A DNA stretch of 64,000 nucleotides from a phage, in sequence record PX393110.1; one strand, written 5' to 3'. This document shows, in pieces, positions 23,568-40,048 of this stretch. The notes under the pieces were generated by a model. That model was not told where the DNA came from and searched no databases. It saw only the letters and a program-made list of their open reading frames with translations. The first letter of the stretch is position 1; each line of letters starts with the position of its first letter. The translations under genes and the position numbers were made by a program.

Positions 23568-25038
23568 GTTCAACACTCTAGATTACTTCTCTCCTAACCT
23601 TAGAGGGAACGAGTTATATAAGTTCTTCTCGCAGGTGCTGGATCATGGTCTAGAGACTGTTGTCTTTCCGGAGATGGATAAAAATACGGCGATTTATGAT
23701 CCTAGTAAACCGTCGTATGATCCGATTTACATCCTGGAGCTACTGGGTCAACCAGACTTAGCAGATCTCATAACTACCGAGGTAGACCAGAACTCAGTAT
23801 CTGTACTCCTCCCAAGTATCCTAGATAATAAGGGTATGAAGGATGGGGTTGATCTTATCTTTAAACTGATAAATGTAGAGATAGACGAGATCCTGTATCA
23901 GAAGACTCCGGAAGGGTGCTCACTAGCAACCATCCTGCTTCCTAAGAACGTGATCTTGTCTACTCGACAAATTAAGCTAATTGATCGTCTGTCGCGTAAG
24001 GTATTTCCGATATGCGTCAGACTTACCGGTATCGCTAACTGTCTTCCAGATGGTGTTGAGTCTCTCGGAAGCGCCTCGCTGGACACCAGCTGGTTGTTGG
24101 ACACATCAATCCTGGATGGTTCGGTAGGTATACGAGTACCTGATATTTCAGATACTCTATGGTTAAGATTCTGTCTCGACATTATGTCAGAGATGGAAGT
24201 ACCTCTTGAAGTGCTGATTGATCGCTTCTCGGATCGTCTGATTAACTCTTATCTGACCGTATTCGACAGAAGAACTATCAGATTGGATAATGGTCTTATT
24301 CTGGACATGGGTACGTACTATGATCTCCAGAATACTGACACTACTCATAGCAGGCTTTATAGCTCATTAGCTGAGTTTAATGTCGATTTAAGCACCGACT
24401 CTAGAACTACCGAGATTGAGTCCTTACTGGACTTATCAGACCTGGTAGCTGGTCTGGAGTTTAAGTCCTCTATGCTGCGTGAGATCTTCCTATTCTTGGA
24501 TATCGACCTCTCAGAGTTCGGATTCGGGAATTACATGGATAGGAAGATAGAGCACTTATCCAAGGGGATAGAGCAAGTAAATTACGGCTATGAGGGTGGT
24601 AATTACGCTGATGGTTACGATTTAACTAACTATCAGAGTTTCGAATACGAGAACTTATACGTAATCCAATCTCATCATGATGGCCAAACTCAGCGTAGCG
24701 GGATGGCTTATTACGGATTGCCGGAAATAGACTGGCTACACTTCGAAGGTATGGACTTCATTAATGGGTCTTACCTGCTGGATGGTACTCGCTATCTTCA
24801 CCAGGAGTTCATTAAAAAGATCAAAGTGTACGATTGGTATACTCATTGGTCTAGCTACCGAGAAGCTATGTTCCTAACCACTCATAAGACCGAAAGACTC
24901 TTAGAGAAACGGGATGGGACTATTCTCCATGACGGAACTTATAATCGCGGTGAGAAAGTAACTCGTTACGGATTCGAACCTCTGTACAACGACGTTATTA
25001 GTCACGATGATACTTACTATCGCGATGCCAATCTATAG
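23560..25038 (+). CDS. baseplate/tail fiber attachment protein
   Basis: 492 aa; ATG at 23560 overlaps previous stop. Confidence 0.45.
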   Translation: MAKFNTLDYFSPNLRGNELYKFFSQVLDHGLETVVFPEMDKNTAIYDPSKPSYDPIYILELLGQPDLADLITTEVDQNSVSVLLPSILDNKGMKDGVDLIFKLINVEIDEILYQKTPEGCSLATILLPKNVILSTRQIKLIDRLSRKVFPICVRLTGIANCLPDGVESLGSASLDTSWLLDTSILDGSVGIRVPDISDTLWLRFCLDIMSEMEVPLEVLIDRFSDRLINSYLTVFDRRTIRLDNGLILDMGTYYDLQNTDTTHSRLYSSLAEFNVDLSTDSRTTEIESLLDLSDLVAGLEFKSSMLREIFLFLDIDLSEFGFGNYMDRKIEHLSKGIEQVNYGYEGGNYADGYDLTNYQSFEYENLYVIQSHHDGQTQRSGMAYYGLPEIDWLHFEGMDFINGSYLLDGTRYLHQEFIKKIKVYDWYTHWSSYREAMFLTTHKTERLLEKRDGTILHDGTYNRGEKVTRYGFEPLYNDVISHDDTYYRDANL

Positions 25039-25046
25039 GTGATTAG

Positions 25047-25814
25047 ATGAGCAATTATACTGGGGCATTTAACTTCCCTGCTCAGGTGTACCAATTTGAA
25101 GAGAGTGATGTGGTTAAAGGTGGTCCGGACGGCGTTGATAACGTGCCTCTTACCCAGCTTTCCGACCGTACGTTTTATCTTAAGGCTCTTGCAGATTTCA
25201 CATTCCTTAAGCTGTTCAATCTGAACCCTCTCGGATCATTCAAAGAAGGATTCCAGATTAACGTGGCTGGGTATGCAGTCTTCGACGAGGCCTCCGGTAA
25301 GTGGTTTAAGTGGACAGGATCTCTGCCTAAAGTGGTGGTTAAGTCTTCTAAGCCCGAAACTACTGGCGGTATCTATGATCCGGTCACTAATCCGAGCGGT
25401 AAGTGGGTGGCTATTGACTTCAGTGTTCTAGACCTTGGCGCTGGGGTTAAGATCCCTACAGCAGCTGCTCTTGGTAATCTGTATAGCGGTAAGTACAATC
25501 CTGCCTTCGTTAAGATTGAGAATGTCTCCAATCTGGACATAGCAGAAGCTACATATACCCGACTCGGGAATGTAGTTACTGTTAATGGCAAGATCACTGC
25601 TTCTGCTACTGATGCTGGAGAAGTAATGAAAATCGGAATTGGCTTACCTATTAACTCTACCTTCTCAGATGACTCAAGTCTCTCAGGAGTTGGTGTTGGT
25701 GTAGTAGCTGGTCAGATTTATGCCGATGTGGACAGTAGCGTGGCTGTTCTTGAGATTAATCAGGGTAGTACAGACGAGCTGTCTCTGAGATACACGTTCT
25801 CTTACACTGTATAA
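25047..25814 (+). CDS. short tail fiber-like protein with conserved N-terminal anchor module
   Basis: 255 aa; N-terminus shares the GGxDGxDNVP...L.DRT.YL motif with the next two tailspike genes. Confidence 0.55.
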   Translation: MSNYTGAFNFPAQVYQFEESDVVKGGPDGVDNVPLTQLSDRTFYLKALADFTFLKLFNLNPLGSFKEGFQINVAGYAVFDEASGKWFKWTGSLPKVVVKSSKPETTGGIYDPVTNPSGKWVAIDFSVLDLGAGVKIPTAAALGNLYSGKYNPAFVKIENVSNLDIAEATYTRLGNVVTVNGKITASATDAGEVMKIGIGLPINSTFSDDSSLSGVGVGVVAGQIYADVDSSVAVLEINQGSTDELSLRYTFSYTV

Positions 25815-25826
25815 TAGGATATCGAA

Positions 25827-28736
25827 ATGGGTGCTTATCAGGGTAAAAATCAGTACGTAGAGGACATCTATACCTTCGAACGTACTGACAAAGTGTCGGG
25901 TGGAGATGACGGTATTGATAACGTACCCATTAAGAATCTCACCGACAGAACTACATATCTCCGTAGTTTAGCATTGAATTCATTCCTGGATATCTATGGG
26001 GTTAATCCTGTAGGTACTTTCGGAATAGGGTTTGATCTTCAGGAATCTGGGGACGGAGTGTACGATGAGGTATCTGGCAAATGGTATTACTGGCTGGGCT
26101 CCTTCCCCAAATCTGTTGCCGAGAACTCATCTCCGGAAGATACTGGAGGTATTTTCGACCCAGAAAGTAATCCTGATGGGTTATGGACTGAGGTAATTCC
26201 GGTAAACCAGCGTCAGGTGGACATGATAGCTCGGGCATTCAGAGTTAAGACAGAGGAAGTCCAGTTCATGAAAGTAGGTCGTCCTCTCGACGGCTTTCGT
26301 GTACTGTATGACTTAACTTCTCAGGAAGCCTATCGTTTGCCGATGGATATTCCAGAAGGATCAACTGTCGTCAGTCTAACAGCTGGTGGATGGCTCGTAC
26401 ACAGCAATGGTGGGGTGGACTTATCTGCCTATGCTGTTGAATTAGAAGAGTACAAGCACTTTACTGGGGGAGACTTCAGTACTGGCTTTACTCTACGTCA
26501 GAACCACTGCGTAGTTATGTATGACGGTGTTATGTATCGCTGGGATGGGGATTTTCCTAAAACAGTAAATGACAACAGTACTCCCGAAGAAGATGGTATC
26601 GGTGAAGGTAAATGGGTGGCGGTGGGTCCAAATTCCAAATTGCTTTATAACATTACCTGGGATGGATCATATCCAGATCAACCAGTTATGGACGACCGCA
26701 CCCAGAGATTAAATCTACCACTACCGGTTCAAACTAATAAACTGGTGGATGACGTTGTACGTCTGCGCGAGACCATTTCAACTCTGGACGAGAAGGTGGC
26801 TACCGTTGGAAACGATGGTAAGATCCCGGTCGAGCAGATCCCAGCAGTAGCTATAACTGAAACATTTCCTGTCTCGAGCCAGGATGAGATGTTGGCTCTC
26901 AATGCCCAGAAGGGAGACATTGCCATCCGTGACGACAATAGCCTGAGCTACATTCTGATGAATGAGCCAGCTTCCACGTTGGAAAACTGGAAGAAGTTCA
27001 AGAATGACGCTCTGGTGCAGTTAGGTAAGAACGGCGGTGTGAATCTGGTTAGTGGAGCTATCCATGCAGCCACGGATCAGGATTCACTTACTTTCGAGAA
27101 CATAACAATTTCCGGTGAAGTATATAGTCACGACCCTAGCATATCTGGATTGGTTGAAGGATTCTCTGTCTATAACGGTAATTTATATCTCACTCGCAAT
27201 CAGATATCTTACAAGCTGTTGTCCAAAAGAAATAAGTTGCGCTGGCCTGGTCTGTACCTCTCTGGTGTAACTGATATGAAATCTTCGATTGAGGCCATTA
27301 TGAGCCATGGCCTCCACGTTGATCTTGATGGGAATGCTATCAGCGTATCTACCTTAAATATCACCAAAAATCTTTATAATGGTGAAATCATTGCTACTGG
27401 AGATACCGGCTCGTTCATTACTGTGAACTCGTGCAAGCTGCTTAGAACCAGGATCAACTGTAACAATAAGGCTATACGCCGTGCTGTGCATCTGAAAACT
27501 GGTTCAATCCGTCCTACTTTGAAAAACACTGAGATTTTTGACAGTTCCGGAGCTACTAATGCAAATGGTGTCTTTATTGACGCGAATAACATCACCGATT
27601 TCCTAGTAGAGGGCGTGTATGTCCATAATCTCACCTCTGTAGCTAATGGATCACAGGGAGATGCAGATGGTCCGTGCCGTGGGATTATCGTTGGCACGGC
27701 TCTTGACCCAGCGCCATCTGAGGCCACGGTATCTAGCGGAGAAATTAATAATGTACGTATCCGCGACTTGGCACCTTTCGAGGACTGCGATGGTGTTGTG
27801 GTTCAGATTTACGATGCCTCGTCTGTAATGCTTAGAGCATCTAAAATCCGCGTCAAAAACGTTGATACTCACAATGTCAGGAAGAGAGCCGTCAAGATTC
27901 AGGCGAACGATGTCACCGTGAGCAACGTCTATGCTTATTGCGATACAACCGATACAGCAATGTATTCAATCGTCAGTCTATATGGTGATAATGGGTATGC
28001 TGAGAATGTCACCGGACGAGGACGCATCAGTAATGGCATAGATTGCGCTTACGGCTTCAACAGAGTTAGCACACTTCACCTTAAAACCGAACGCACGGGT
28101 GCCGATACCCTTGCTGGGATTGGAGCAGGGTTGCTTATCAACTCCGGGCAAGTGGAAGCCAGTGGTATCTATTCCGAAGGTGCGGAATATGTTCTTGCTA
28201 TCAGGGATGCCCTTGGCGTGACACCTTACGTCAAAGTCTCTGGTCTTCGCGGGCAGGGTTACAGCGGAGTGGCTCGTTTCCAGATACGAGCCGGAAACTC
28301 TATCGGCAGCGTTTACATTGACGACGTTTCGGCAAATTCCTCGGCAACAAATAAATCGGCGATATCCGTAGACATAACGTCCAATGGAATAGGACTGGTA
28401 AATATCTCGGACGTGAAACGACTAAGTCAGCCATTCACCGGAGCAGACATTAATATGTCTGGGGCTGTCACGGAGGCAATTTTCCGCGATTGTATTCTAA
28501 ATTCTGGAAGCTCTACTGTTGGTATTTCCATGGCAACAGGAAAACTGACTGTTGAGAATATCAGTGCCCCTAGTAAGACGTATGCAGTTCAAGCTGTTCA
28601 GACGAGTAATTCATGGCTGAATAATATCGACGGAATAGTGCGTCTTGAGAATACGGCGAACACCAGACTTGGCCTCTATCGCGGAGTTTCTTCAGCTGGC
28701 ACAAACACTGGTCTTCTCACGTTGAATTATGCGTAA
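25827..28736 (+). CDS. tailspike protein 1 (beta-helix-type putative depolymerase)
   Basis: 969 aa; N-terminal anchor module; repetitive N/G/S/T-rich beta-strand segments in C-terminal half. Confidence 0.65.
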   Translation: MGAYQGKNQYVEDIYTFERTDKVSGGDDGIDNVPIKNLTDRTTYLRSLALNSFLDIYGVNPVGTFGIGFDLQESGDGVYDEVSGKWYYWLGSFPKSVAENSSPEDTGGIFDPESNPDGLWTEVIPVNQRQVDMIARAFRVKTEEVQFMKVGRPLDGFRVLYDLTSQEAYRLPMDIPEGSTVVSLTAGGWLVHSNGGVDLSAYAVELEEYKHFTGGDFSTGFTLRQNHCVVMYDGVMYRWDGDFPKTVNDNSTPEEDGIGEGKWVAVGPNSKLLYNITWDGSYPDQPVMDDRTQRLNLPLPVQTNKLVDDVVRLRETISTLDEKVATVGNDGKIPVEQIPAVAITETFPVSSQDEMLALNAQKGDIAIRDDNSLSYILMNEPASTLENWKKFKNDALVQLGKNGGVNLVSGAIHAATDQDSLTFENITISGEVYSHDPSISGLVEGFSVYNGNLYLTRNQISYKLLSKRNKLRWPGLYLSGVTDMKSSIEAIMSHGLHVDLDGNAISVSTLNITKNLYNGEIIATGDTGSFITVNSCKLLRTRINCNNKAIRRAVHLKTGSIRPTLKNTEIFDSSGATNANGVFIDANNITDFLVEGVYVHNLTSVANGSQGDADGPCRGIIVGTALDPAPSEATVSSGEINNVRIRDLAPFEDCDGVVVQIYDASSVMLRASKIRVKNVDTHNVRKRAVKIQANDVTVSNVYAYCDTTDTAMYSIVSLYGDNGYAENVTGRGRISNGIDCAYGFNRVSTLHLKTERTGADTLAGIGAGLLINSGQVEASGIYSEGAEYVLAIRDALGVTPYVKVSGLRGQGYSGVARFQIRAGNSIGSVYIDDVSANSSATNKSAISVDITSNGIGLVNISDVKRLSQPFTGADINMSGAVTEAIFRDCILNSGSSTVGISMATGKLTVENISAPSKTYAVQAVQTSNSWLNNIDGIVRLENTANTRLGLYRGVSSAGTNTGLLTLNYA

Positions 28737-28743
28737 CAGTGCC

Positions 28744-28761
28744 CCCGCTGCTTGGCGGGGT
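28744..28761 (+). terminator. GC-rich hairpin after tailspike 1 (no U-tract)
   Basis: CCCCGC-TGCTTG-GCGGGG stem-loop 8 nt after the stop codon. Confidence 0.3.
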
Positions 28762-28951
28762 CCCACCAACCGGAGGTCAACTACACTTATGAATAAGGTA
28801 TCCATAAAGTTTAGTAGCCTGATTTATGGCAGGTTCACGCTATCTACAAAAAGTGAAAATCATAGTCATAATGTAGGTGATTATGATTTTAACCAAGAGG
28901 AACTTACTCTCTGGTTTGGGAATTAGTATATAATATATTATAGGTGAATAA

Positions 28952-31936
28952 ATGTCTTATAATCCGATCTTAGAAGGATCAACCTGGCCGGAGACTATTC
29001 GTCGCTTAGAAAAGACGGATAGGGCGGAAGGTGGGCCACTAGTTACTAATTCTGAGGATGAACCAGTATCTGGACATATTAATCATCCAATAACTCAGTT
29101 AGCTACCAGAACTTCCATTTTAAAAAAGTATAATTTATCGATAATTAATAACACTAAAGAACAGTGGAAATTATTACTCGGTGACTTAGGACTAACTCTT
29201 GTTGGTACTTTTGAAGAAGGCGCTACTACTAACAGCAAGACTGATGCTGTTTGGCATATTGCTGGTGGTCAGTGTTACGTGTGGGGTGGTTTACTCCCTA
29301 AGACTGTATATGCTAACTCCACACCGCTAACTACTGGTGGTATCTCTGCTGATGCTTGGGTTAGTATTGGTGATGCCGCACTGCGAGGGCAAATATCAGA
29401 CCCGGACGGTGCGACAAAATACCCTGAATTGCAGATTGCTAGATGGCGTGACACTTTTGACCCTCGCGGTTGGGGAGCTAAAGGTGATGGATTAGTTGAT
29501 GATACTGTGGCTCTTAATAATCTGTTAAACGCTGCGCCAGTGGGTCAGAAAATTAATGGTAACGGTAGAACCTATAAAGTATCTGTGCTTCCAGATATTA
29601 GCCGATTCGTCAACACTCGTTTCGTTTATGAGCGTATTCCTGGCCAGACGCTTTATTATGTGTCTGACGAGTTTGTTCAGGGTGAGTTAATTAAAATAAC
29701 CGACACGCCTTATTACAATGCCTGGCCGCAGGATAAAGCGTTCGTTTACGACGATGTTATTTACTGTCCGTTCATGGCTAGCGATCGGCACGGGGTTAGC
29801 AGGCTGCATGTATCCTGGGTTCGCTCAGGTGATGACGGACAGACCTGGACGACCCCGGAGTGGCTAACCGACCTGCACCCTAATTACCCGACAGTTAACT
29901 ATCACTGTATGAGTATGGGTGTGATGCGCAACCGCCTATTTGCGATGATTGAAACCCGTACATTGGCATCTAACGCACTGGTGACTTGCGAGTTATGGGA
30001 TCGGCCCATGTCCCGTAACTACCATCCGACAGGTGGCATCACAAAAGCCGCCAACCAGCCTGTGGCTGTAATTACCATCCCTGAACACGGTCTTTTTGCT
30101 GGGGATTTTGTTAACTTCTCAAACTCTGGGGTGACTGGCGTTTCAGGGAATATGACTGTAACTTCAGTTATTGACCGCAACACGTTTACAGTTACCACGC
30201 CAAATCAACAAGCATTCGACCAAAATAACTCTACCAGCCGCTGGCATATGGGGACATCGTTCCATCAGTCACCATGGCGTAAAACCAGCCTTGGATTGAT
30301 CCCCATGGTTACCGAGGTTCACAGTTTTACCGCCATCAATAACGATTCATTCATGATGGGATATCACCAGGGTGATGTTGCTCCGCGTGAAGTCGGTATG
30401 TTGTATTTTCCGGATGCGTTCAACAATCCTGGGCTTTATCAGAAACGGCATATTCCTGCTGAATATGAGCCAGATGCGGCAGAACCCTGCGTTAAGTATT
30501 TTGACGGTGTTCTTTATGTTGTAACCCGTGGAACCAGGTCTGATCGTCTTGGTAGTTCTCTGCATCGCAGTAGCGACCTGGGGATTACCTGGCAATCACT
30601 GAGGTTTCCGAATAACGTCCACCACTCTACCCTGCCATTCGCTAAGGTAGGAAACGAACTGATTCTTTTCGGCACCGAACGCGCCGACAACGAGTGGGAA
30701 GCAAACGCACCGGATCAACGATATTTCAGTTCTTACCCACGGACGTTCTACACGAGAGTGAACCTCGACACCTGGAACCTGAATAATACTCAGTGGGTAA
30801 ATATCACTGATCAGATTTATCAGGGTGGTATTGTTAACTCTGGCGTCGGTGTCGGATCGGTCGTCGTGAAAGATAGTTATATCTATTACATGTTCGGTGG
30901 GGAAGACCATCTGAACCCATGGACATATGGAGATAACTTAGAGAAAGACCCATTCAAATCAGACGGTCATCCCTCAGATTTGTATTGTTACAAAATGCAG
31001 ATCGGTCCAGACAATCGTGTTTCTCGTGATTTCAGGTACGGTGCTGTACCTGACAGAGCGGTTCCAGTGTTTTTTGATACGAATGGAATTCGCACTGTTC
31101 CTGCGCCTATGGAGTTCACCGGTGATTTAGGGTTAGGTCATGTGACCATTAGAGCCAGCACCAGTAATAACGTTCGCTCTGAAGTTTTAATGGAAGGTGA
31201 GTATGGGTTTATTGGGAAATCTGTACCTACTAATAACCCAGCAGGACAGCGCACCATATTTTGCGGTGGCGAAGGAACCAGTTCTTCTACTGGTGCACAG
31301 ATTACGCTTTATGGTGCTAATAACACAGCTTCTCGCAGGATAGTTTACAACGGAGCTGAGCATCTGTTCCAGACTGCTGACGTTAAGCCTTATAACGATA
31401 ACGCGATTGCGCTCGGTGGGCCTAGCAACCGATTCACTACTGCATACCTCGGAAGCAACCCTATTGTTACTTCTAACGGGGAGAAGAAAACAGAGCCGGT
31501 ATTTTTTGACGATGCTTTTTTAGATGCTTGGGGCGACGTTCATTACATCATGTACCAGTGGTTGGATTCTGTACACTTGAAAGGAAATGACGCTAGAATT
31601 CATTTTGGCGTAATTGCTCAGCAGATCCGCGATGTATTCATTGCTCACGGTCTGATGGATGAGAATAGCACGGATTGCCGCTATGCCGTTCTGTGTTACG
31701 ACAAATATCCTCGCATGACAGACATGGTGTTCTCTCACAATGAAATCGTTGAACACACTGACGAGGAGGGTAATGTAACTACCACGGAAGAACCTGTATA
31801 CACCGAGGTGGTTATTCACGAAGAGGGTGAGGAGTGGGGTGTGCGGCCTGATGGAATTTTCTTTGCTGAGGCAGCATTCCAGAGAAGAAGACTGGAGAGA
31901 ATCGAAGCCAGACTTTCCGATCTTGAAAAGAAATAG
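28952..31936 (+). CDS. sialidase-like tailspike (endosialidase-like) with C-terminal intramolecular chaperone domain
   Basis: 994 aa; two Asp-box motifs (SGDDGQTW, SSDLGITW); GAKGDG motif; C-terminal S74-like chaperone region; distinct codon usage. Confidence 0.7.
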   Translation: MSYNPILEGSTWPETIRRLEKTDRAEGGPLVTNSEDEPVSGHINHPITQLATRTSILKKYNLSIINNTKEQWKLLLGDLGLTLVGTFEEGATTNSKTDAVWHIAGGQCYVWGGLLPKTVYANSTPLTTGGISADAWVSIGDAALRGQISDPDGATKYPELQIARWRDTFDPRGWGAKGDGLVDDTVALNNLLNAAPVGQKINGNGRTYKVSVLPDISRFVNTRFVYERIPGQTLYYVSDEFVQGELIKITDTPYYNAWPQDKAFVYDDVIYCPFMASDRHGVSRLHVSWVRSGDDGQTWTTPEWLTDLHPNYPTVNYHCMSMGVMRNRLFAMIETRTLASNALVTCELWDRPMSRNYHPTGGITKAANQPVAVITIPEHGLFAGDFVNFSNSGVTGVSGNMTVTSVIDRNTFTVTTPNQQAFDQNNSTSRWHMGTSFHQSPWRKTSLGLIPMVTEVHSFTAINNDSFMMGYHQGDVAPREVGMLYFPDAFNNPGLYQKRHIPAEYEPDAAEPCVKYFDGVLYVVTRGTRSDRLGSSLHRSSDLGITWQSLRFPNNVHHSTLPFAKVGNELILFGTERADNEWEANAPDQRYFSSYPRTFYTRVNLDTWNLNNTQWVNITDQIYQGGIVNSGVGVGSVVVKDSYIYYMFGGEDHLNPWTYGDNLEKDPFKSDGHPSDLYCYKMQIGPDNRVSRDFRYGAVPDRAVPVFFDTNGIRTVPAPMEFTGDLGLGHVTIRASTSNNVRSEVLMEGEYGFIGKSVPTNNPAGQRTIFCGGEGTSSSTGAQITLYGANNTASRRIVYNGAEHLFQTADVKPYNDNAIALGGPSNRFTTAYLGSNPIVTSNGEKKTEPVFFDDAFLDAWGDVHYIMYQWLDSVHLKGNDARIHFGVIAQQIRDVFIAHGLMDENSTDCRYAVLCYDKYPRMTDMVFSHNEIVEHTDEEGNVTTTEEPVYTEVVIHEEGEEWGVRPDGIFFAEAAFQRRRLERIEARLSDLEKK

Positions 31937-32056
31937 TAAATAAAGCTTTTTTACCGTAGGTAGGGGGGCTTCAATTTAAGATTTAACTTAAACCAATTAC
32001 CACTCTAAAGTTACTAAGTATTTGTACATCATGTAATATTTTTATGGAGATCACCA

Positions 32057-34678
32057 ATGGGCGGTCGTTCTAGGTTATTTAGCGAACTGGGCGGAGCTCC
32101 TCTTAATACTTATCAGCATGATAATCAGACTCTCGATATTCGCGAGTTAGAGAGTCAGCAGAAAGTATTAGACGAGACTCTTGCCGAAACAATCGGCGAT
32201 GTTAGCGAACTACAGCAGACTGCTGGACAGTCTATGTATATCCTCGGTAACTACGCTGCTGGAATGGTGATCGAGAACGACCGCCAGTACGTCAGACATG
32301 AGAATCTGCTGTACTACTGGACTGGTCCTGTACCGTTTACCACTACTGGTAACTTCTACGAAGAATCCTACTGGACTGGTGGGGTGCAGAGTGGTATCGA
32401 ATGGAGCTACGAAGTACAGGAAGATGGTGAGTTTGAGTTTGAAGTACCATACTCCTTCACCAGCGTACGCCTGTTCGTGGGTGGCGCTCGCCTTACTCGC
32501 GTAGAAGATTACACTATCGATGTGATTAATCGCAAGATCACTCTGACTAAGATTAAACTGTCGAAGGGCGTCCTGGTAACTGCCGAGCTGAATTCTCGTG
32601 ATGCTCTCAGCGTTACCCAGGATCGCATCGATAGCCTTACCAGAGAGATCTCAGAGAAAGTAGGCTTTGTTAACTACAAACTTACTGATCTGTCGGAAGG
32701 TCAGAGCCTTACCCTAACTACCAGAGTTCAGACTGTAAGCTTCTCACTAAATGGGGAGTATTACAAATGGGATGGTGTTCTTCCTAAAGTCGTTAACTAT
32801 GGAGATCCGGAACCAGCTCAATCTGAGCAGGGTACTGGTAAGTGGATTCCTGTAGGTTCTGGCGCCTTGAAATCAGAACTGGGCAAAGTCAGCGACACTA
32901 CTGGAGCGGTTCTTGTAGCTCTACCACAAGGCGGTAACGTGGCGAACGGTATTCGCTATGTAACTCCCGAAATGGCTGGTGCTAAAGGAGATGGTACCAC
33001 TGATGACACCACAGCCGTTCGTAACGTTGTAGCTCTCGCCAAATTAACTGGTCTTAAAATCACCGGTGGAGCGAACTATAAGATCTCGAATGCTTCAATC
33101 GATATCTCTGGTACTGTCATTGAGAACCTACGTCTTAAAGGAAGTGGGTCTAGCTCTATACTGCTAGTTAATGGCAATACTGCCATATCTAATCTAACCC
33201 TAAATAGGGTAGGTATTAGACACACTAACGGTATCTTAAACCTGGACAAATTTGAGATCAATGACTGTAGTGCTACTGCGGCTATTTTAAGCCTTCAGCT
33301 AACATCACCTGGACAAATATTTCTCACCAATGGTGTTATGCGTCGTTGTAATTACGGTTACCTTCGTCAGGGATCTCCAGCTTCTTCCCAGCCGCTGACT
33401 ACTTCATTACTTCGGAATTTACAATTCTTCGATATGAAGGGTGATCCAATCGAGATCAATCTGGCGATAGCTGATACCAACACTACTATCGATCAAATAA
33501 CCATAGATAACGTGGACTCCACAGCTACCGGGAATACTAACTGGGGTATTGCTATAGGCTTAGCTGGGATGGGTAACTACTCACCCACTGCCGCAGACTC
33601 AGAGTACATGTCTGATGTAACCATAAGTAATATTAAGATTACCGGAGCCAAACAGTGTCTGCACTTGGAGAAATGCAGAAACATTAGAATCAGAAATATC
33701 GACATACATCCGGATTCCACTAAGTCAACCGGAGTTGGGTTGGATACTGGTGGTTTCATAGCTTATGGATGTAAAGAGATATACGTGGATGGTGTAACTG
33801 GGTCTCCAACCAACGGAACGGAAGATATGATTCGTTTCGCTTGGGGATCTGTTAACAATGCGTTTACCTTCGCTCATCGAAATGTGCACTTAAGAAACGT
33901 CAATGTAACAGGTACTGTTAAAGTGGAGGTTAGCTGTTCTGATACCCTAGCTTCGACTGTAGAGATGAGAAATATCAATGCAACAACGATATCTCTCCAA
34001 GGCATGGCGTCTGAATACCAGCTGTCAGATTGGTCCGCTGAGAAGATGGTGTTGGATTTCAGATATGTTAGCGGAGATGCTAGAGATAATTACCGTAGAA
34101 ATGCGTGGTCAATTGCTACCATCAGTAATTTGAAATGCCTGAATTCTAACACTGGCGCTCCTGAGGTTACTGTACAGAACATCACTGTGGATACATTGGA
34201 AGTTTCTGGGTGTAACTTCCCTATCCAGAAGACTTTAACTGCTACCCATTGGAGAGGAACTCCTGCATGGCGGCAGAATGGTATTATTTACCACTCTAAG
34301 ACCGGAACTCCTTATGGCATGGCTCTTCTTGCTGGTGACACTATCGTTGCTAGTGACGGAACTATGTTCACGGTGACCTCCCCTGGAGCTCTGTTCTACT
34401 CAAACGAAACTGTTGCGGCCGCTACTGCTGGGTCTAACGCTATTCGTTCTAAAACTAACCTTAACTGGACTGGTCAGTATTATAAGACTGCTGGGTGTAA
34501 GGTTAAAATAGCAGGAGGTGGAGGTGCTGACGGCTCTGATTACATCGGTACTATTGTCCGCAGTGGTTATATTAACAGTGGTAATTACTACTTTGATGTT
34601 TACCCACCACTTCAGTCTAACGTACCTGATGGCGCAGTATTAACTTCCGTAGAAGTACCAGCCTTTAAAACAGTTTAA
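32057..34678 (+). CDS. tailspike protein (pectate-lyase-like beta-helix)
   Basis: 873 aa; GAKGDGTTDDTTAV motif typical of pectate_lyase_3-type tailspikes; internal YKWDGVLPK module. Confidence 0.65.
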   Translation: MGGRSRLFSELGGAPLNTYQHDNQTLDIRELESQQKVLDETLAETIGDVSELQQTAGQSMYILGNYAAGMVIENDRQYVRHENLLYYWTGPVPFTTTGNFYEESYWTGGVQSGIEWSYEVQEDGEFEFEVPYSFTSVRLFVGGARLTRVEDYTIDVINRKITLTKIKLSKGVLVTAELNSRDALSVTQDRIDSLTREISEKVGFVNYKLTDLSEGQSLTLTTRVQTVSFSLNGEYYKWDGVLPKVVNYGDPEPAQSEQGTGKWIPVGSGALKSELGKVSDTTGAVLVALPQGGNVANGIRYVTPEMAGAKGDGTTDDTTAVRNVVALAKLTGLKITGGANYKISNASIDISGTVIENLRLKGSGSSSILLVNGNTAISNLTLNRVGIRHTNGILNLDKFEINDCSATAAILSLQLTSPGQIFLTNGVMRRCNYGYLRQGSPASSQPLTTSLLRNLQFFDMKGDPIEINLAIADTNTTIDQITIDNVDSTATGNTNWGIAIGLAGMGNYSPTAADSEYMSDVTISNIKITGAKQCLHLEKCRNIRIRNIDIHPDSTKSTGVGLDTGGFIAYGCKEIYVDGVTGSPTNGTEDMIRFAWGSVNNAFTFAHRNVHLRNVNVTGTVKVEVSCSDTLASTVEMRNINATTISLQGMASEYQLSDWSAEKMVLDFRYVSGDARDNYRRNAWSIATISNLKCLNSNTGAPEVTVQNITVDTLEVSGCNFPIQKTLTATHWRGTPAWRQNGIIYHSKTGTPYGMALLAGDTIVASDGTMFTVTSPGALFYSNETVAAATAGSNAIRSKTNLNWTGQYYKTAGCKVKIAGGGGADGSDYIGTIVRSGYINSGNYYFDVYPPLQSNVPDGAVLTSVEVPAFKTV

Positions 34679-34702
34679 TAGATTAAACTGAGGAGATTAT
34701 TG

Positions 34703-36154
34703 ATGTCCACCCAATTGCCAGATAGTCTGCAGCCAAGCAGCCTTAAGTATAAAGGTGACTATGCGGCTGGTATTTACCTTAACGGAAACCACTGCATCCT
34801 TCGCTTTGTACGCACTGATGGTAAGAAGGTGTTGGTTAAGTGGGTGGGGGAAGTCCCCCACACCACCGACGGCGAGACTCCGTATACCGATACCGACCAA
34901 ACTACTCTTAAAGCTGGTTACGAGCTCTTCTCCCAGACGAATGCAGTAGACTTCATTATTTCAATGTTCAGTTCCTCCACATCCTGGCGCTATATCGGCC
35001 AGGTTAACTCTGTGGAAGATCTGAAGACTATCACTCCTAAGGATGGCGATCGAGTGATAGTTAAAGGCTACTTCGGGGAAGGTACTCCCGGAGGTGGTGA
35101 GTTCCGAGTTAAGACTACCAATGACTCTATTCCTTCGGACAGTAAGGATGTAGTCAATGGTTGGGTACGAGTTCGTCGTAGCAAGGAGTATCACGCTACC
35201 GAGTTTGGTGCTGTTCCTGATAAGTTAACTGACTCTACTGGTCAGGTTCAGGATATGCTCACTACTATCACCACTGGTCTGGCTATAATTGATCCTGGTG
35301 TTAAGTATACCCTAGCTAACTTAACTATCAAGCCTGGCGTCCAGATTCTGGATATGTCTGGATGGGACGGTAGTTCATGGACGGCTGCAGTGAGATTCAT
35401 CAGTAACTCTACTGATGGGTTGATAATCTCTTCTGCATCCAATGCTAACCTTAACCTCAACAGTAACAACGGGTTAGCCAGAGCTAAGGTATCTTACAGC
35501 GTAAGCGGAACTAAGATCTGGGAATCGGGTATGAGCGATGACTCTAACCGAGACTGGCATGTTCTTCGAGGATCTGAGTCTCGTTACCGTGTGGTATCTG
35601 CTTCCCAGGCTCACGCATGGAACAGAGATACCATAGTTGAAGGTGTCGATTACCACTACGGTAAGAGAGCATCTGAGAATCATGTTCTTCGCTACGATGC
35701 AGTGAGTACTGGCTATGATATCATTCATACCTATTACCACGGTACCACTCTCACCTCTAAGATAACCCATAAAGGCGATGGATCAGTAATCCTGACCCAG
35801 AATGGTAAGGATACCATCAAGATAGTAGATGGTGTAATGACTGGTGCCCTGAAGAAGATCATCACGTCTACAGCTAACGTAACTCTTACTGCAGCTGATA
35901 CTGGTGCTATTTGCACTACTGATGGTGCCACTTCTTCGGTTACCATTACCCTGCCAGTAGCTGTTCCTGGTATGACCTATGATGTACTCGTAGGTGCCAA
36001 CTACAGCGTATCAGTGAAAACTGGCGGTACAGATCTCTTCCGTAATGGGAACGCTACTGTTTCTAACTCGGATAAGGGATCCTGGTTACGCTTAGTTTGC
36101 GCTATCTCCGGTTACTGGGAGATGGATACTGTTCAGGGTACCTGGGCAAGTTAA
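34703..36154 (+). CDS. tail fiber/tailspike protein
   Basis: ATG at 34703 after GAGGAG RBS; 483 aa; beta-rich, anchor-like N-terminus. Confidence 0.55.
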   Translation: MSTQLPDSLQPSSLKYKGDYAAGIYLNGNHCILRFVRTDGKKVLVKWVGEVPHTTDGETPYTDTDQTTLKAGYELFSQTNAVDFIISMFSSSTSWRYIGQVNSVEDLKTITPKDGDRVIVKGYFGEGTPGGGEFRVKTTNDSIPSDSKDVVNGWVRVRRSKEYHATEFGAVPDKLTDSTGQVQDMLTTITTGLAIIDPGVKYTLANLTIKPGVQILDMSGWDGSSWTAAVRFISNSTDGLIISSASNANLNLNSNNGLARAKVSYSVSGTKIWESGMSDDSNRDWHVLRGSESRYRVVSASQAHAWNRDTIVEGVDYHYGKRASENHVLRYDAVSTGYDIIHTYYHGTTLTSKITHKGDGSVILTQNGKDTIKIVDGVMTGALKKIITSTANVTLTAADTGAICTTDGATSSVTITLPVAVPGMTYDVLVGANYSVSVKTGGTDLFRNGNATVSNSDKGSWLRLVCAISGYWEMDTVQGTWAS

Positions 36155-36170
36155 TTAAACGGAGACTACT

Positions 36171-36992
36171 ATGTCCTTTATGGTATTGGCCGAAAGTGGC
36201 CACATAGCTTTAGCTAAAACGGTGCATGATGCAAATCTGCACTTTGCATGGGGCACCATCCCAGATGCTGTAGCTGCTCCAGAAACCATGTCTGCCTCCG
36301 CGGTAGATGGTGGTACTCTGGATCCTGCCACGTATACTTATGTGGTTACTGCAGCCAACAAATTCGGTGAAACCACCGCATCCATGGCTGCTACTGCTAC
36401 TATCGTTGCTTCGGCTTCTCAGCAGTCTATTCAGTTAAACTGGGGTGCATCTGCGAATGCTGAGAAATACATCATCTATCGCCAGGGCACCAACTCCTAT
36501 GATAAAATTGGTGAGTCTACTTCTAATACTTTTACTGATAACGGCAGCACTACTCCAGATAGCTCGGTTAATCCTCCTACGACGAACACTACATTCCCGT
36601 CTGCATGGACTAAACCAGCACCTAACCCGGACCCGTCGCTACCTGATATGTATGCTGAAGTCGGACGCCGTAAGATCCTCACCAAGGAATATGTGAAACA
36701 GGATCCTAATGGTACCATCGAGACTTCAGAAGGAAAGTGGTCTATCTCCGATAAGCCAACTAAGCATCTGTATCTGCATGTTCAGTTTAACTATACTGAT
36801 GCTCCAGATGACATGATCTACCAGTTCGCTATCTTCATAGGGACTGTACCTACTGATGGTAATGAGAATGCTCTTTACCTCACCCCAGATATGATTAAGG
36901 AAAAGGGAGAGATGCTCGGAATTGAGAACCATACCCTGATTATTCGTGAGTCCACTACCCGCGAAGGTCATTCCGTCATCCTCACGTTCTAA
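36171..36992 (+). CDS. tail fiber-associated hypothetical protein
   Basis: 273 aa; S/T/P-rich linker; lies within the fiber array. Confidence 0.45.
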   Translation: MSFMVLAESGHIALAKTVHDANLHFAWGTIPDAVAAPETMSASAVDGGTLDPATYTYVVTAANKFGETTASMAATATIVASASQQSIQLNWGASANAEKYIIYRQGTNSYDKIGESTSNTFTDNGSTTPDSSVNPPTTNTTFPSAWTKPAPNPDPSLPDMYAEVGRRKILTKEYVKQDPNGTIETSEGKWSISDKPTKHLYLHVQFNYTDAPDDMIYQFAIFIGTVPTDGNENALYLTPDMIKEKGEMLGIENHTLIIRESTTREGHSVILTF

Positions 36993-37003: not shown

Positions 37004-40000
37004 ATGGCAACTTTACCGTCTGATTACTTTAACAGATTCGCGGCTAAGAAGAACTATGCCAAGCATCTGTTTATCGCGGACAGACCGCTCCAGAGCTCGG
37101 AGCTAAATGAAATTCAGGATCAGCAGCTCAATAACGTCTCTACACTGTCCGGCTTCTTGGTCGGTGATGGTGCCATTACTGATGGGGCGGATATTTCCGC
37201 TCTTGGGGACGGTGTGATCTCTATCACTGAGGGTACGTTAATCTATGCCGGTATGGCTATGAACGTACCCGCTGTTACGGATGCATCGTTCCCGACTGCT
37301 GGAGAGGCTGTTTTAGGTGTATCTATCTCTGATAAGGTAATCACCTATCTCGATGATCCTGAGCTTCTCATGCAGTATCAGAACTCTCCGAGCTATGGTT
37401 CAGCTGGTGCTGACCGTCTCCAGAAGGTGACTACTTGGCTGTTAGCCGATGATGTCCCAGAGGGAGATACCTTCTTCCCAGTATTCTACTTCAAGAATGG
37501 CGTACTGGTAAAAACCACTAAGTCTCGTAACGATCTCGACCAGTTCTCTGGTCTTCTGGGTCGCTACGACTCTGATACCCATGGTAACTACGTACTGGAT
37601 GGCCTTACTCTGTCCTATGCAGGTATCGATGGTTCCACCCAGCAGATCATGTTGAACATGGCTGCGGGCAAGGCTCGTGTACTTGGCAACGAAGCACTGT
37701 TCGCCTATGAAAGTACCGTGCGTCTGGACCCTATCAACGATACCGGTAACGTAGCTTCCGAGCCGTATGTGTTTACAGCAGGTACTTATACCTATCAATT
37801 GCGCTACTCTGTAATTGATCAGGTAACTGCTGTTTCTGGTACTAAGCAGGTAACTCGTACGGTAACTCATGGCTCCGCAACGGGTTCGTCTGACTTACTT
37901 CCGGATACTCCTGTTCTGCAGATTATTTCTGTGCAGCAGGGTGGTACTGTCTACGTTAAAGGTAGTGACTATGTACAGAACGGGGACTCTGTAGACTGGT
38001 CACCTACTGGTAACGAACCATCTCCTGGTTCTACTTATCAGGTTACGTACCAGTACATTGACCAGTTCATCCCGACCTGGAACGATACCTCTATCACTAT
38101 TTCCACCAGTGATGCTCTGGTATCTGGGTCTACGTTCTACGTAACCTACTCTTACTTCCTGTCTCGCTATGACCGTGTATCTATCGATGCCTCCGGCGCG
38201 GTGCAGATTACTAAGGGTATTCCAGCAATCCTGGCGAATGCTCAGTTGCCAGGTACTTCCGCTACGTTGCTGTCCATTGCAACTATTCGTCTGACTAAAG
38301 GTCAGGATCCGGTCATCAACAATGATCGTATCGAAGTAGTTACTTATAATGAGCTGAAAGATCTGATGTCTCTGGTAAGCGACATGCAGTACAACATCGC
38401 CCAGCTTTCGCTTCGTGATGAAACTCGCTCTACCGATCCGACTACGACTAAGAAAGGTGTGGTAGTTGACTCTCTGCTTAACGGTAACATGCGTGATGAT
38501 GGTCTTACCAACAACGCCATCGTTGATGAAGGTCAGCTGTTCATCGGAGCATCTTTCTCTCGTCAGTCTAGCCTGGCTCCTGATGGTCTTATGTTATCGT
38601 TTACCGATACCGTAATTCAGTCTCAGGAATTCCGTACCAAGGATACTCGCATCAACCCGTATGCTGGTTCCGGCCAGGTACCTCAGGCGATGATCTCTGT
38701 GTCTCCAGCTAAGATCGATACTCGTGGCTTCTGGTCGTACTTCCATGGTGGATTCCTGCCAGTGGATACTACGATTACGATTAAGCTGTCTGGGTATGCT
38801 GCTAATGAGCAGATTGATCTTACGTTCCGTAACCTCGCAGTGGTTACCTTGGTTGCGGATGACAACGGTACAGCACAGTATGCTCATATGCTATCTGGTG
38901 GCTTGATTAACGGTACGTATCAGTATGTTGCTACCGGTAAGACTACTAAGGCTGTGACTCGCGGTACAGTAACCATCTACAACTCCGGTAGGGTCGACTA
39001 CGGTCAGAACTGGACTGGTGGTGCTGTGCCATGGGGTTACGACCCAGTAGCTCAGACTTTCACTATCCAGGCTACTCGTGATATTAACGCAGTGTCTATC
39101 TACCTAACTGAACTGCCTACTAACACGCTCCAGATTAAACTGGTTCCGACTAAGGTCGGTATTCCGGACTCTACCCAGCTTTACGGCTTCGGTGAAGTTC
39201 CGGCTAATAAATGCGTGCTGGGATGGAACAAGATCAATCTTCGTTATCCAGTAACGGTAACTGGCGGTACTGAGTACTCCATCATCGTCGCTACGGCTAA
39301 CTATCAGGGTAAGGTGGCTACAGCTAAGATTAACGGGTACGATACCGATAAGAAACAGTATGTAGTGAATCAGCCAGCGCAGGGTGTACTGTTAACTTCT
39401 GCGAACGAATCTACCTGGTCTCCGGTTCAGGATGAAGACTTGATGTATCGTCTCCATGCCACTAACTATGGCTCTACCCGTACCGTGAACTTAGGTTCTG
39501 TAACAGTAGCTAGCAATACCAACAGTCTGTCACTGACTGCTGATATTGAGACTCCGGCAAATACCTCCGTGAGATTCTACCTCACTAACGGTACTGATAA
39601 CATTAACCTCAACGTTAACTCTGAAACGTACACTGAGAACTTCTCTGGTACTTTCAGTCTGATGGCAGAGTTTAATACTGGTGATCCTACTGTATCTCCG
39701 AAGGTCTTCGGTGGCGTCATCTTCCGTTCTGGCACTACTGATACTCCTGGGGTATATACCCAGCGTCAGTTCAGTATTCCTAACGGTAACGTTACTCCGG
39801 TAACGCTTAACGTCATCCTGGATCAGTATGTGCCATCTGGTGCCAGCGTAACTGTTCAGTACCAGAATGGTAGTAACTGGGTAGCCTTGACTGGGGGCAC
39901 CGGAACCGCTCTGGGAGATGGGTGGTATACCGTACCTTACAAACTGTCAGGAGTCAATGTGGCTAATACCCGCATCCGTATCATCCTGTCTCTGTCTAAC

Positions 40001-40048
40001 CCAGTTAACCGTCCGTTCGTTAAGAACGTTCGCGCATACTTTAGCTAA
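37004..40048 (+). CDS. large tail fiber/baseplate attachment protein
   Basis: 1014 aa; long beta-rich G/T/S/V-rich protein at end of fiber array. Confidence 0.55.
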   Translation: MATLPSDYFNRFAAKKNYAKHLFIADRPLQSSELNEIQDQQLNNVSTLSGFLVGDGAITDGADISALGDGVISITEGTLIYAGMAMNVPAVTDASFPTAGEAVLGVSISDKVITYLDDPELLMQYQNSPSYGSAGADRLQKVTTWLLADDVPEGDTFFPVFYFKNGVLVKTTKSRNDLDQFSGLLGRYDSDTHGNYVLDGLTLSYAGIDGSTQQIMLNMAAGKARVLGNEALFAYESTVRLDPINDTGNVASEPYVFTAGTYTYQLRYSVIDQVTAVSGTKQVTRTVTHGSATGSSDLLPDTPVLQIISVQQGGTVYVKGSDYVQNGDSVDWSPTGNEPSPGSTYQVTYQYIDQFIPTWNDTSITISTSDALVSGSTFYVTYSYFLSRYDRVSIDASGAVQITKGIPAILANAQLPGTSATLLSIATIRLTKGQDPVINNDRIEVVTYNELKDLMSLVSDMQYNIAQLSLRDETRSTDPTTTKKGVVVDSLLNGNMRDDGLTNNAIVDEGQLFIGASFSRQSSLAPDGLMLSFTDTVIQSQEFRTKDTRINPYAGSGQVPQAMISVSPAKIDTRGFWSYFHGGFLPVDTTITIKLSGYAANEQIDLTFRNLAVVTLVADDNGTAQYAHMLSGGLINGTYQYVATGKTTKAVTRGTVTIYNSGRVDYGQNWTGGAVPWGYDPVAQTFTIQATRDINAVSIYLTELPTNTLQIKLVPTKVGIPDSTQLYGFGEVPANKCVLGWNKINLRYPVTVTGGTEYSIIVATANYQGKVATAKINGYDTDKKQYVVNQPAQGVLLTSANESTWSPVQDEDLMYRLHATNYGSTRTVNLGSVTVASNTNSLSLTADIETPANTSVRFYLTNGTDNINLNVNSETYTENFSGTFSLMAEFNTGDPTVSPKVFGGVIFRSGTTDTPGVYTQRQFSIPNGNVTPVTLNVILDQYVPSGASVTVQYQNGSNWVALTGGTGTALGDGWYTVPYKLSGVNVANTRIRIILSLSNPVNRPFVKNVRAYFS

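Follow-up and report, generated by a model that had tools for sequence, protein, structure and literature searches.

The window analysed here, a 64,000-nt stretch of phage DNA, contains at 28952..31936 on the + strand a gene that encodes a protein of 994 aa followed by a stop codon, in agreement with the open reading frame given in a preliminary description of this DNA. All features described below lie on the same strand. The carrier is an E. coli myovirus of approximately 111-116 kb and belongs to the vB_EcoM_IME392 / EP_H11 group; three genomes of this lineage were available. The baseplate wedge genes lie upstream of the gene, which is one of several different receptor-binding protein genes arranged in a row; among them is a homologue of phi92 gp150, which is annotated as colanic-acid degrading. 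When the 64-kb window was compared with IME392, the nucleotide identity was 92-96% throughout. The closest relative of the product was AXY86125.1 of the myovirus vB_EcoM_IME392 (MH719082), which showed 96% amino acid identity and 93.6% nucleotide identity along its entire length, anchor included. The record of AXY86125.1 is labelled only as 'putative tail fibers protein'. A look-up of the exact 994-aa sequence in a collection of 15 billion proteins gave no match. This orthologue occupies the same genomic slot in IME392 and is followed by the same colanidase-like gene, whereas the upstream region has been swapped: tail-fibre, assembly-protein, and collar-fibre genes are found in IME392, and one gene for a 969-aa tailspike is found here.

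All four endosialidase Pfam domains (End_N_terminal, End_beta_propel, End_beta_barrel, and End_tail_spike) were detected in the product, together with Peptidase_S74 and Tail_spike_N. The endosialidase N-terminal extension domain (aa 176-242, 29477..29677; PF12218, E 4.8e-34) is followed by the six-bladed catalytic beta-propeller (aa 243-684, 29678..31003; PF12217, E 9e-204), which covered positions 1-366 of the 367 positions of the profile. A beta-barrel (lectin-like) domain is inserted in the propeller (aa 354-436, 30011..30259; PF12195, E 2.3e-40), and the stalk, a triple beta-helix / tail-spike domain, comes next (aa 687-840, 31010..31471; PF12219, E 9.8e-77). Two Asp-box motifs (S-x-D-x-G-x-T-W) had been pointed out, and both were found: SGDDGQTW (aa 292-299, 29825..29848) and SSDLGITW (aa 540-547, 30569..30592) were matched to the K1F motifs SGDDGQTW and SRDIGQTW, respectively, at the same positions of the alignment. 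The protein had also been described as a sialidase-type tailspike, and this needs to be narrowed. The sialidase fold and the endosialidase profiles matched, but membership of GH33 was rejected because BNR_2 (PF13088) scored 15.5 bits, below the cut-off of 31.4 (E 0.012). The BNR_2 match was limited to aa 278-314 around Asp-box 1, and no stretch passed the cut-off alone. The endosialidase family corresponds to GH58 in CAZy.

Subsequent comparison with solved structures gave an end-to-end alignment of aa 171-840 with 1v0e and 3gvl, the crystal chains of endoNF (gp17) of phage K1F (E = 0), and the phi92 endosialidase 4hiz also matched the 994-aa protein (E 5.7e-232). The identity to the crystallised K1F enzyme was approximately 85% within the solved part and 77% over the whole alignment with K1F gp17. 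Per domain it ranged from 78 to 94%, with 70% in the beta-barrel. The residues H280, R479, E511, R526, and R577 were identical to H350, R549, E581, R596, and R647 of K1F, the active-site roles of which have been reported (PMC12632334). Indeed, all functional residues checked were conserved, their positions being shifted by -70 relative to K1F, and the domain order was shared with K1F from the Tail_spike_N-like region onward. In the stalk, R767, S778, and Q783 were conserved as K1F R837, S848, and Q853, which presumably form the polysialic-acid binding site of the K1F stalk. Furthermore, a dN/dS of 0.03-0.07 was observed for codons 217-994 against four homologues, indicating that this part of the gene is under purifying selection.

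The C-terminal segment had been thought to resemble a self-cleaving intramolecular chaperone, and the Peptidase S74 profile confirmed this resemblance. PF13884 scored 34.5 bits (cut-off 22; E 2.5e-8), and PDB 3gw6, the C-terminal chaperone of K1F, matched aa 720-994 with an E of 3.4e-174; the chaperone / autoprotease domain itself was assigned to aa 841-994 (31472..31933). The Ser-Lys dyad S841/K846 (S-x4-K) is conserved; it corresponds to S911/K916 of K1F, numbered according to the alignment and the point at which the mature crystal chains stop. Conservation extends to N842 and G886, whose counterparts N912 and G956 are essential in K1F; the roles of these residues have been reported (PMC3742443). 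The local sequence is NPIVT↓SNGEKKTEPV here and NPIVT↓SNGERKTEPV in K1F, with the arrow at the predicted cleavage site, and the mature K1F crystal chains terminate at the residue aligned to T840. By this homology, autocleavage would be expected between T840 and S841.

Taken together, these comparisons indicate that the 994-aa product is a phage endosialidase (endo-N-acetylneuraminidase) and a K1F-type tailspike. It is very probably the precursor of a homotrimeric endosialidase tailspike, a close homologue of K1F endoNF, carried by a myovirus of the IME392 / EP_H11 group. If maturation proceeds as in endoNF, the C-terminal chaperone would fold and trimerise three chains; after formation of the triple beta-helix stalk, the Ser841/Lys846 dyad would cut the chain and the chaperone domain would be released. 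The mature spike would then be held on the virion by the anchor of aa 1-60 and the Tail_spike_N adaptor, and its cutting of the polysialic-acid capsule would let the phage tunnel through. The polysialic-acid depolymerase activity and the linkage and capsule specificity are predicted from the per-domain identities to endoNF given above.

The N-terminal region differs from that of K1F. The first approximately 130 aa are unrelated to K1F, which has a T7 gp17-type tail-binding domain and 245 aa before the crystallised part; here, a 60-aa anchor of the myovirus lineage and a Tail_spike_N of its own replace that domain. The carriers are also different, since K1F is a 40-kb T7-like podovirus and the carrier here is an approximately 115-kb myovirus with several other spikes. 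Comparison with the sister phage EP_H11 and with IME392 delimited the lineage-specific anchor as aa 1-60 (28952..29131). The amino acid identity to IME392 was 95% across aa 1-84, and the corresponding slot of EP_H11 encodes a protein of 560 aa whose N-terminus is 52% identical to aa 1-60 (E 4e-17) and whose remainder is unrelated to the endosialidase. From this we infer that only aa 1-60 act as the lineage anchor. How the spike is mounted on the virion is itself a prediction from sequence, and these residues would presumably attach either to the baseplate or to a different receptor-binding protein. The N-terminus of phi92 gp143 was considered as a source of the anchor and was discarded, as no similarity was found on comparison. 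The adaptor, a Tail_spike_N of the TSP1/gp66 type (aa 85-141, 29204..29374), was detected by PF18668 with 55.7 bits (cut-off 25; E 5.4e-15). This stretch matched PDB 4oj5, 5w6h, 8x8m, and 9vvr, which are N-terminal domains of the CBA120 TSP / G7C type, and the region gave tblastn matches in 341 phage records.

The catalytic module showed 85-90% nucleotide identity to phages of Ackermannviridae and Schitoviridae and approximately 78% to K1F, and the YX22 endosialidase was 87% identical at the amino acid level. YX22 (Ackermannviridae) and UE-S5a, UE-M3, and PBM-3 (Schitoviridae, Gamaleyavirus) carry the same allele group of the catalytic and chaperone parts: from codon 243, near which the GC3 step falls in these comparisons, the identity per domain was 85-95% at the nucleotide level and 94-100% at the amino acid level. 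In contrast, the N-terminal anchors and the virion architectures of these phages are entirely different, and codons 134-216 are homologous with saturated synonymous divergence. The idea that a module had been grafted onto an anchor is supported by these results, as aa 1-60 are common to the EP_H11 slot and the catalytic module is common to other phage families.

The preliminary description placed a shift to G/C-rich codons at approximately 29.4 kb and took it as a sign of foreign codon usage in the enzyme. A step in GC3 does lie inside the gene, but its site is at approximately nt 29600 (29585..29630), about 200 nt further downstream. The best single split fell after codon 216 and separated a GC3 of 0.296 upstream from one of 0.474 downstream; the likelihood-ratio statistic was 22.4, and 500 permutations gave a 95% value of 9.3 and reached at most 18.5. 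The GC3 was 0.44 for the whole gene and 0.475 for codons 243-994, whereas the mean of the window was 0.458 +/- 0.043 (57 ORFs, the endosialidase gene included). Codons 217-994 were indistinguishable in composition from the core genes of the phage within the 64-kb window. Hence, the statement that the catalytic part is unlike the neighbouring genes did not hold. The outlier was the N-terminal part, whose 242 codons had a GC3 of 0.31, lower than every 242-codon window of the other genes in the window; a low GC3 at the 5' end was not seen in the other receptor-binding protein genes of the window. Codons ~250-350 alone were locally high, with a GC3 of 0.61 that lies in the top 0.15% of the 100-codon windows of the other genes. 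The enrichment in CCG, GCG, ACG, and CGG was modest: over codons 243-994 they numbered 43.8 per 1000, compared with 25.9 per 1000 for the other genes, approximately 1.7-fold. The related fraction of CCG, GCG, ACG, TCG, and CGG was 0.045 for the gene and stayed within the range of 0.000-0.067 of the other genes.

At the same site, the third-position identity to YX22 and UE-S5a climbed from 30-50% to 63-80%; the increase was gradual across codons ~196-241, with no sharp break. The dS against the endosialidases of Ackermannviridae and Schitoviridae was saturated in codons 134-216 and was 0.59-0.66 in codons 217-994. The GC3 step sits within the End_N_terminal domain, inside the endosialidase-homologous region and not at the border between the anchor and the module. 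IME392, YX22, and UE-S5a have the same step, whereas K1F is without it. These observations, drawn from four or five sequences, indicate that the GC3 step coincides with a recombination junction between the adaptor/linker and the catalytic module. The comparisons show the gene to be layered, and we read it as a mosaic of at least three layers. The first is the anchor (aa 1-60). The second is the adaptor/linker (aa ~63-216), which is widely shared and is homologous to other endosialidases with saturated synonymous divergence. The third is the catalytic and chaperone layer (aa ~217-994), which on this reading has passed between unrelated phage families in comparatively recent exchanges. A patchwork of recombination within the catalytic module was also considered and set aside: in codons 743-842 the window phage resembled YX22 slightly more than IME392 (14 informative sites versus 9), which is suggestive but too weak.

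The low GC3 of the N-terminal part allows a further reading, in which the approximately 216 N-terminal codons (anchor, Tail_spike_N, and linker) would be a block imported from a lower-GC phage with the same anchor class, and the catalytic part would have been ameliorated or would have come from a donor of similar GC. We hold this to be possible, though only tentatively so. The GC3 of codons 1-216 was 0.29-0.30 in the window phage and IME392. That of the anchor was 0.28-0.30 in both, against a genome-typical 0.47 in the homologous anchor of EP_H11; because of this difference, it is the anchor region, and not the enzyme, that looks compositionally foreign or atypical. In addition, PD06, AV125, and other Stephanstirmvirinae of low GC gave the best full-length matches of aa 9-131 outside IME392. 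Stephanstirmvirinae, which include phi92, have a GC content of approximately 35% and genomes of 146-149 kb (PMC12210895). These matches reached only 37-39% identity, however, so that no donor is identified. Local mutation or selection (expression, 5' mRNA structure) could also give a low GC3, and the lineage is known from three genomes only. A broader proposal, which we regard as doubtful, would see in the IME392-like phages a second independent lineage of multi-spike myoviruses beside the phi92-like phages, with spike slots reprogrammed downstream of a slot-specific anchor of approximately 60 aa. An undescribed anchor class would then mount a K1 depolymerase on a contractile-tail baseplate, and the low-GC3 block would reflect a recent inter-lineage transfer of the anchor and the adaptor as a unit.

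The original reading, in which the catalytic module from approximately 29.4 kb is a recent foreign import with still distinct G/C-rich codons and the anchor is native, appears improbable. The rise of GC3 inside the gene, the local maximum at codons ~250-350, the enrichment in the four codons, and the presence of the module in unrelated phage families are in its favour. However, codons 243-994 have a GC3 close to the mean of the window, the 242 codons that fall below all others are the N-terminal ones, the anchors of the window phage and IME392 depart from the genome-typical value seen in EP_H11, and the step lies within sequence homologous to K1F and YX22. The proposed contrast is inverted: the part with atypical composition is the N-terminal stretch of approximately 216 codons, anchor included. 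The preferred reading is the mosaic with a junction after codon 216.

Among the known enzymes, phi92 gp143 (endoN92, 4hiz) has the same fold and the same chaperone domain at 51% identity. Its N-terminus of approximately 45 aa is without Tail_spike_N, and it cleaves both alpha-2,8 and alpha-2,9 linkages. Phi92 is also a myovirus with multiple spikes and fibres, and one of these proteins is annotated as degrading colanic acid. The BME3 paper was considered as a source on the present lineage and was put aside, as it concerns phi92-like phages instead. A substrate range unlike that of endoNF, for example K92 polysialic acid with its alternating alpha-2,8/alpha-2,9 linkages, the case of phi92 gp143, or O-acetylated variants of K1, is very unlikely: a bifunctional endosialidase is present in the multi-spike myovirus phi92 (PMC13450770), some surface residues differ from K1F, and the beta-barrel is only 70% identical to that of K1F, but the protein is far closer to endoNF than to phi92 gp143, all active-site residues examined are identical to K1F, as are the three in the stalk, and a near-identical module occurs in phages isolated on APEC/UPEC (YX22, UE-S5a, and Pipis on UTI89).

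Reading the gene as a K1F-type endosialidase assigns a function by homology, that of a K1 capsule depolymerase with a self-cleaving chaperone, where the nearest GenBank relative bears only a tail-fibre label, and predicts that K1-encapsulated E. coli is open to attack by both the window phage and IME392. The K1 capsule has a classical association with neonatal meningitis and with many extraintestinal E. coli strains, and K1 capsules are common among the APEC and UPEC pathotypes. The practical value of this assignment is small but real, and it opens no new biological question. The gene adds one more case of a depolymerase module moving among myo-, Ackermann-, Schito-, and Autographiviridae-type phages. 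For this field, the endosialidase family is textbook material in both its mechanism and its exchange of modules, and the product is another copy of a known enzyme type, a well-understood K1-capsule-cutting tailspike and not a discovery.

The gene is preceded by an intergenic spacer of 215 bp (28737..28951) with a GC content of 0.39, against 0.456 for the window. The length given earlier was exact and the hairpin noted within the spacer exists: it has a 7-bp GC-rich stem and a GCUU loop (28743..28760) and begins 7 nt past the stop codon that ends the preceding gene, the one for the 969-aa tailspike. It folds no better than shuffled sequences, however (z = 0.16). No T-run follows the hairpin and a terminator scan gave no call; sigma-70-like sites in the region numbered 6 against 7.5 expected from shuffles, and the spacer was accordingly rejected as a regulatory element. 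A search for a shared promoter motif found no 9-mer in more than two intergenic regions of the structural module. A 65-aa ORF within or over the spacer (28729-28926) is probably spurious. Neither this ORF nor the spacer DNA had a match in the phage collection, searched at the DNA and protein levels, and the spacer was also rejected as a gene or gene remnant. The spacer and the hairpin look unremarkable. In IME392, the spacer is 79 bp, and only approximately 17 nt before the ATG are conserved with the 215-bp spacer. A Shine-Dalgarno-like AGGTGA is located 4 nt before the ATG (28942..28947), and its flanking bases are conserved with IME392.

The 994-aa ORF of the preliminary description is present at 28952-31936 (+), and both of its Asp-boxes were found, SGDDGQTW at aa 292-299 (nt 29825-29848) and SSDLGITW at aa 540-547 (nt 30569-30592). 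They lie opposite SGDDGQTW and SRDIGQTW of the K1F endosialidase in a four-protein alignment. Using Pfam, we observed a complete endosialidase architecture consisting of the adaptor domain Tail_spike_N (aa 85-141), End_N_terminal (aa 176-242), End_beta_propel (aa 243-684, E 9e-204), End_beta_barrel (aa 354-436), End_tail_spike (aa 687-840), and Peptidase_S74 (aa 852-901, 34.5 bits vs a cut-off of 22). The last of these bears out the C-terminal chaperone that had been proposed, as does the match of aa 720-994 to the K1F stalk-plus-chaperone construct 3gw6 in the Protein Data Bank (E 3.4e-174). Furthermore, the crystallised catalytic fragment of K1F endoNF matched aa 171-840 end to end (E = 0), and the phi92 endosialidase 4hiz matched the protein with an E of 5.7e-232. 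Overall identity was 96% to the protein of Escherichia phage vB_EcoM_IME392 (IME392), 87% to that of the Ackermannviridae phage YX22, and 77% to K1F gp17; identity to phi92 gp143 was 51%. A GH33 sialidase profile was not obtained, as the GH33-type BNR_2 profile scored 15.5 bits, below its threshold of 31.4. Judged from these matches, the predicted protein is an endosialidase and not a GH33 enzyme; we take the endosialidase family to be GH58 in CAZy.

All functional residues checked were identical to those of K1F at a constant offset of -70. R767, S778, and Q783 in the stalk correspond to K1F R837, S848, and Q853, which presumably form the stalk polysialic-acid binding site. The active-site residues H280, R479, E511, R526, and R577 correspond to K1F H350, R549, E581, R596, and R647, whose roles are summarised in PMC12632334. 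The autocleavage residues are the dyad S841/K846 together with N842 and G886, corresponding to K1F S911/K916 (numbering of the dyad assigned by alignment), N912, and G956; the serine-lysine dyad and the essential N912 and G956 of K1F are described in PMC3742443. Because mature K1F crystal chains terminate at the aligned counterpart of T840, the processing site is predicted to be NPIVT|SNGEKK. dN/dS against four homologues was 0.03-0.07 over codons 217-994, indicating strong purifying selection on the gene. Taking the K1F and phi92 literature together with the residue conservation in the 994-aa protein, we infer the following mechanism. The C-terminal domain would nucleate trimer formation and the folding of the triple beta-helix stalk, and the Ser841/Lys846 dyad would next cut between T840 and S841, freeing the C-terminal domain. 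Attached to the virion through aa 1-60 and the adaptor domain, the mature trimer would bind the alpha-2,8-polysialic acid in K1 capsules and cleave it endolytically, which would open the way to the outer membrane for the phage.

The window shows 92-96% nucleotide identity to IME392 (116 kb), and the sister phage EP_H11 (111 kb) also matches it outside the receptor-binding region. In EP_H11 the whole block at ~24.2-36.8 kb is replaced, and the 560-aa protein in the equivalent slot has only its first 60 residues in common with the endosialidase (52% identity, E 4e-17) and no endosialidase domains. Here ~24200-36760 of the window was compared with 62000-77000 of EP_H11 (OP688485), the phages being otherwise 92-95% identical. 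In each swapped slot a short N-terminal stretch is conserved; the 873-aa protein encoded downstream of the endosialidase, for instance, is similar over its first ~100 aa to the N-terminus of the 824-aa protein of EP_H11. These N-termini suggest slot-specific anchors.

Residues ~63-141 form the Tail_spike_N domain, present in 341 phage records. Homology to K1F and YX22 begins at aa ~134 and that to the Schitoviridae phage UE-S5a at aa ~183, and its depth is uneven along the protein. YX22 and UE-S5a agree with the window gene at 30-50% of third positions over codons 136-210, rising to 63-80% once codon ~211-226 is reached; dS is saturated in codons 134-216 and 0.59-0.66 in codons 217-994. Taken together, these differences divide the protein into three layers: anchor, adaptor/linker, and catalytic-plus-chaperone module. 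On sequence grounds, we regard the anchor as lineage-type, the adaptor and linker as old and shared, and the module as swapped in comparatively recent times between a myovirus, a phage of the Ackermannviridae, and several Schitoviridae. In codons ~743-842 (31157-31480), the window is slightly closer to YX22 than to IME392 (14 vs 9 informative sites; 96-99% vs 91-92% nucleotide identity in 30-codon windows), despite IME392 being the nearest relative genome-wide. This hints at possible patchwise gene conversion among endosialidase alleles.

A shift to G/C-rich third positions from ~29.4 kb had been read as foreign codon usage of the catalytic part. The shift is real: third-position GC (GC3) was best divided by a single split at the end of codon 216 (nt ~29600), rising from 0.296 before this point to 0.474 beyond it. 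The likelihood-ratio statistic of the split was 22.4 (permutation 95% value 9.3, maximum 18.5) and stayed at or below 10.3 in all other long genes of the window. Its meaning is, however, the reverse of that proposed. GC3 was 0.44 for the whole gene and 0.475 for codons 243-994, near the mean of the 57 window ORFs including this one (0.458 +/- 0.043), whereas the N-terminal 242 codons (0.31) were below every 242-codon stretch of all other window genes. Locally high GC3 was limited to codons ~250-350 (0.61). CCG, GCG, ACG, and CGG were ~1.7-fold enriched in codons 243-994 (43.8 vs 25.9 per 1000 in other genes), and the CCG+GCG+ACG+TCG+CGG fraction of the whole gene, 0.045, was within the range of other genes (0.000-0.067). 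The step marks the recombination junction (~codon 216), not the anchor/module border; it recurs in IME392, YX22, and UE-S5a and is absent from K1F. Anchor GC3 was 0.28-0.30 in the window and IME392 and 0.47 in the EP_H11 homologue. If anything, the N-terminal block would be the compositionally foreign part. Outside IME392, the best full-length matches of aa 9-131 were low-GC Stephanstirmvirinae (37-39% identity), a possible hint as to a donor.

The endosialidase family, its chaperone, and horizontal module exchange between unrelated phages have all been well documented before. GenBank already contains a 96%-identical protein, the exact 994-aa sequence being absent from a large protein collection, and the IME392 orthologue AXY86125.1 carries no annotation beyond 'putative tail fibers protein'. 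What is gained is a correct function-based name for a poorly annotated protein, the prediction of a K1 host range in the IME392-type phages, and a correction to how the GC3 signal had been read.

The upstream spacer (28737-28951) is exactly 215 bp with a GC of 0.39 (window 0.456), and the GC hairpin described there is present at its start (28743-28760; 7-bp GC-rich stem, GCUU loop). We assigned no function to this hairpin because it has no downstream T-run, received no call in the terminator scan, and has a fold no more favourable than those of dinucleotide-shuffled sequences (z = 0.16). Only about 17 nt preceding the ATG are conserved with IME392. A 65-aa ORF (28729-28926, +) occupies most of the spacer, with a shorter in-frame start at ~28789 preceded by GGAGG at 12-nt spacing. 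Neither the spacer DNA nor this ORF has a counterpart in the phage collection, and the ORF is probably not a gene. The downstream spacer (31937-32056; 120 bp, GC 0.30) is more AT-rich than the upstream one and begins with AAAGCTTTTTT directly after the stop codons.

Baseplate wedge genes precede the endosialidase gene, which belongs to a row of genes for receptor-binding proteins. Their products are a fibre-like protein of 255 aa, a 969-aa tailspike whose N-terminal domains are of the CBA120 type (25827-28736, +), the endosialidase itself, an 873-aa phi92 gp150 homologue (32057-34678, +; PDB 6e0v, E 1.4e-66; phrog_6117, E 4e-170), a 484-aa depolymerase-like protein, and further proteins. phi92 gp150 is annotated as colanic-acid degrading. 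The row resembles the phi92 multivalent adsorption apparatus (PMC13450770), the window phage being of a different myovirus lineage. At the cluster end, a 1014-aa protein (37004-40048, +), conserved in IME392 and EP_H11, matches only PHROGs whose function is unknown (phrog_877, E 4e-163; and, over its C-terminal 400 aa, phrog_5986). The 969-aa tailspike, which has two Tail_spike_N stretches and CBA120 TSP-like N-terminal domains, has only its first ~818 nt in common with IME392 (89.7%), whose homologue is a 305-aa 'tail fibers protein'. For the receptor-binding part of the 969-aa protein (~26618-28736), the phage collection contains no near match. A second, independent module swap seems to have taken place here in this cluster. 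The 873-aa gene has a GC3 step opposite in direction to that of the endosialidase (codon 200, 0.51 to 0.38, likelihood-ratio statistic 10.3), roughly where homology to the phi92-type module starts (phrog_6117 from aa 191, 6e0v from aa 275).
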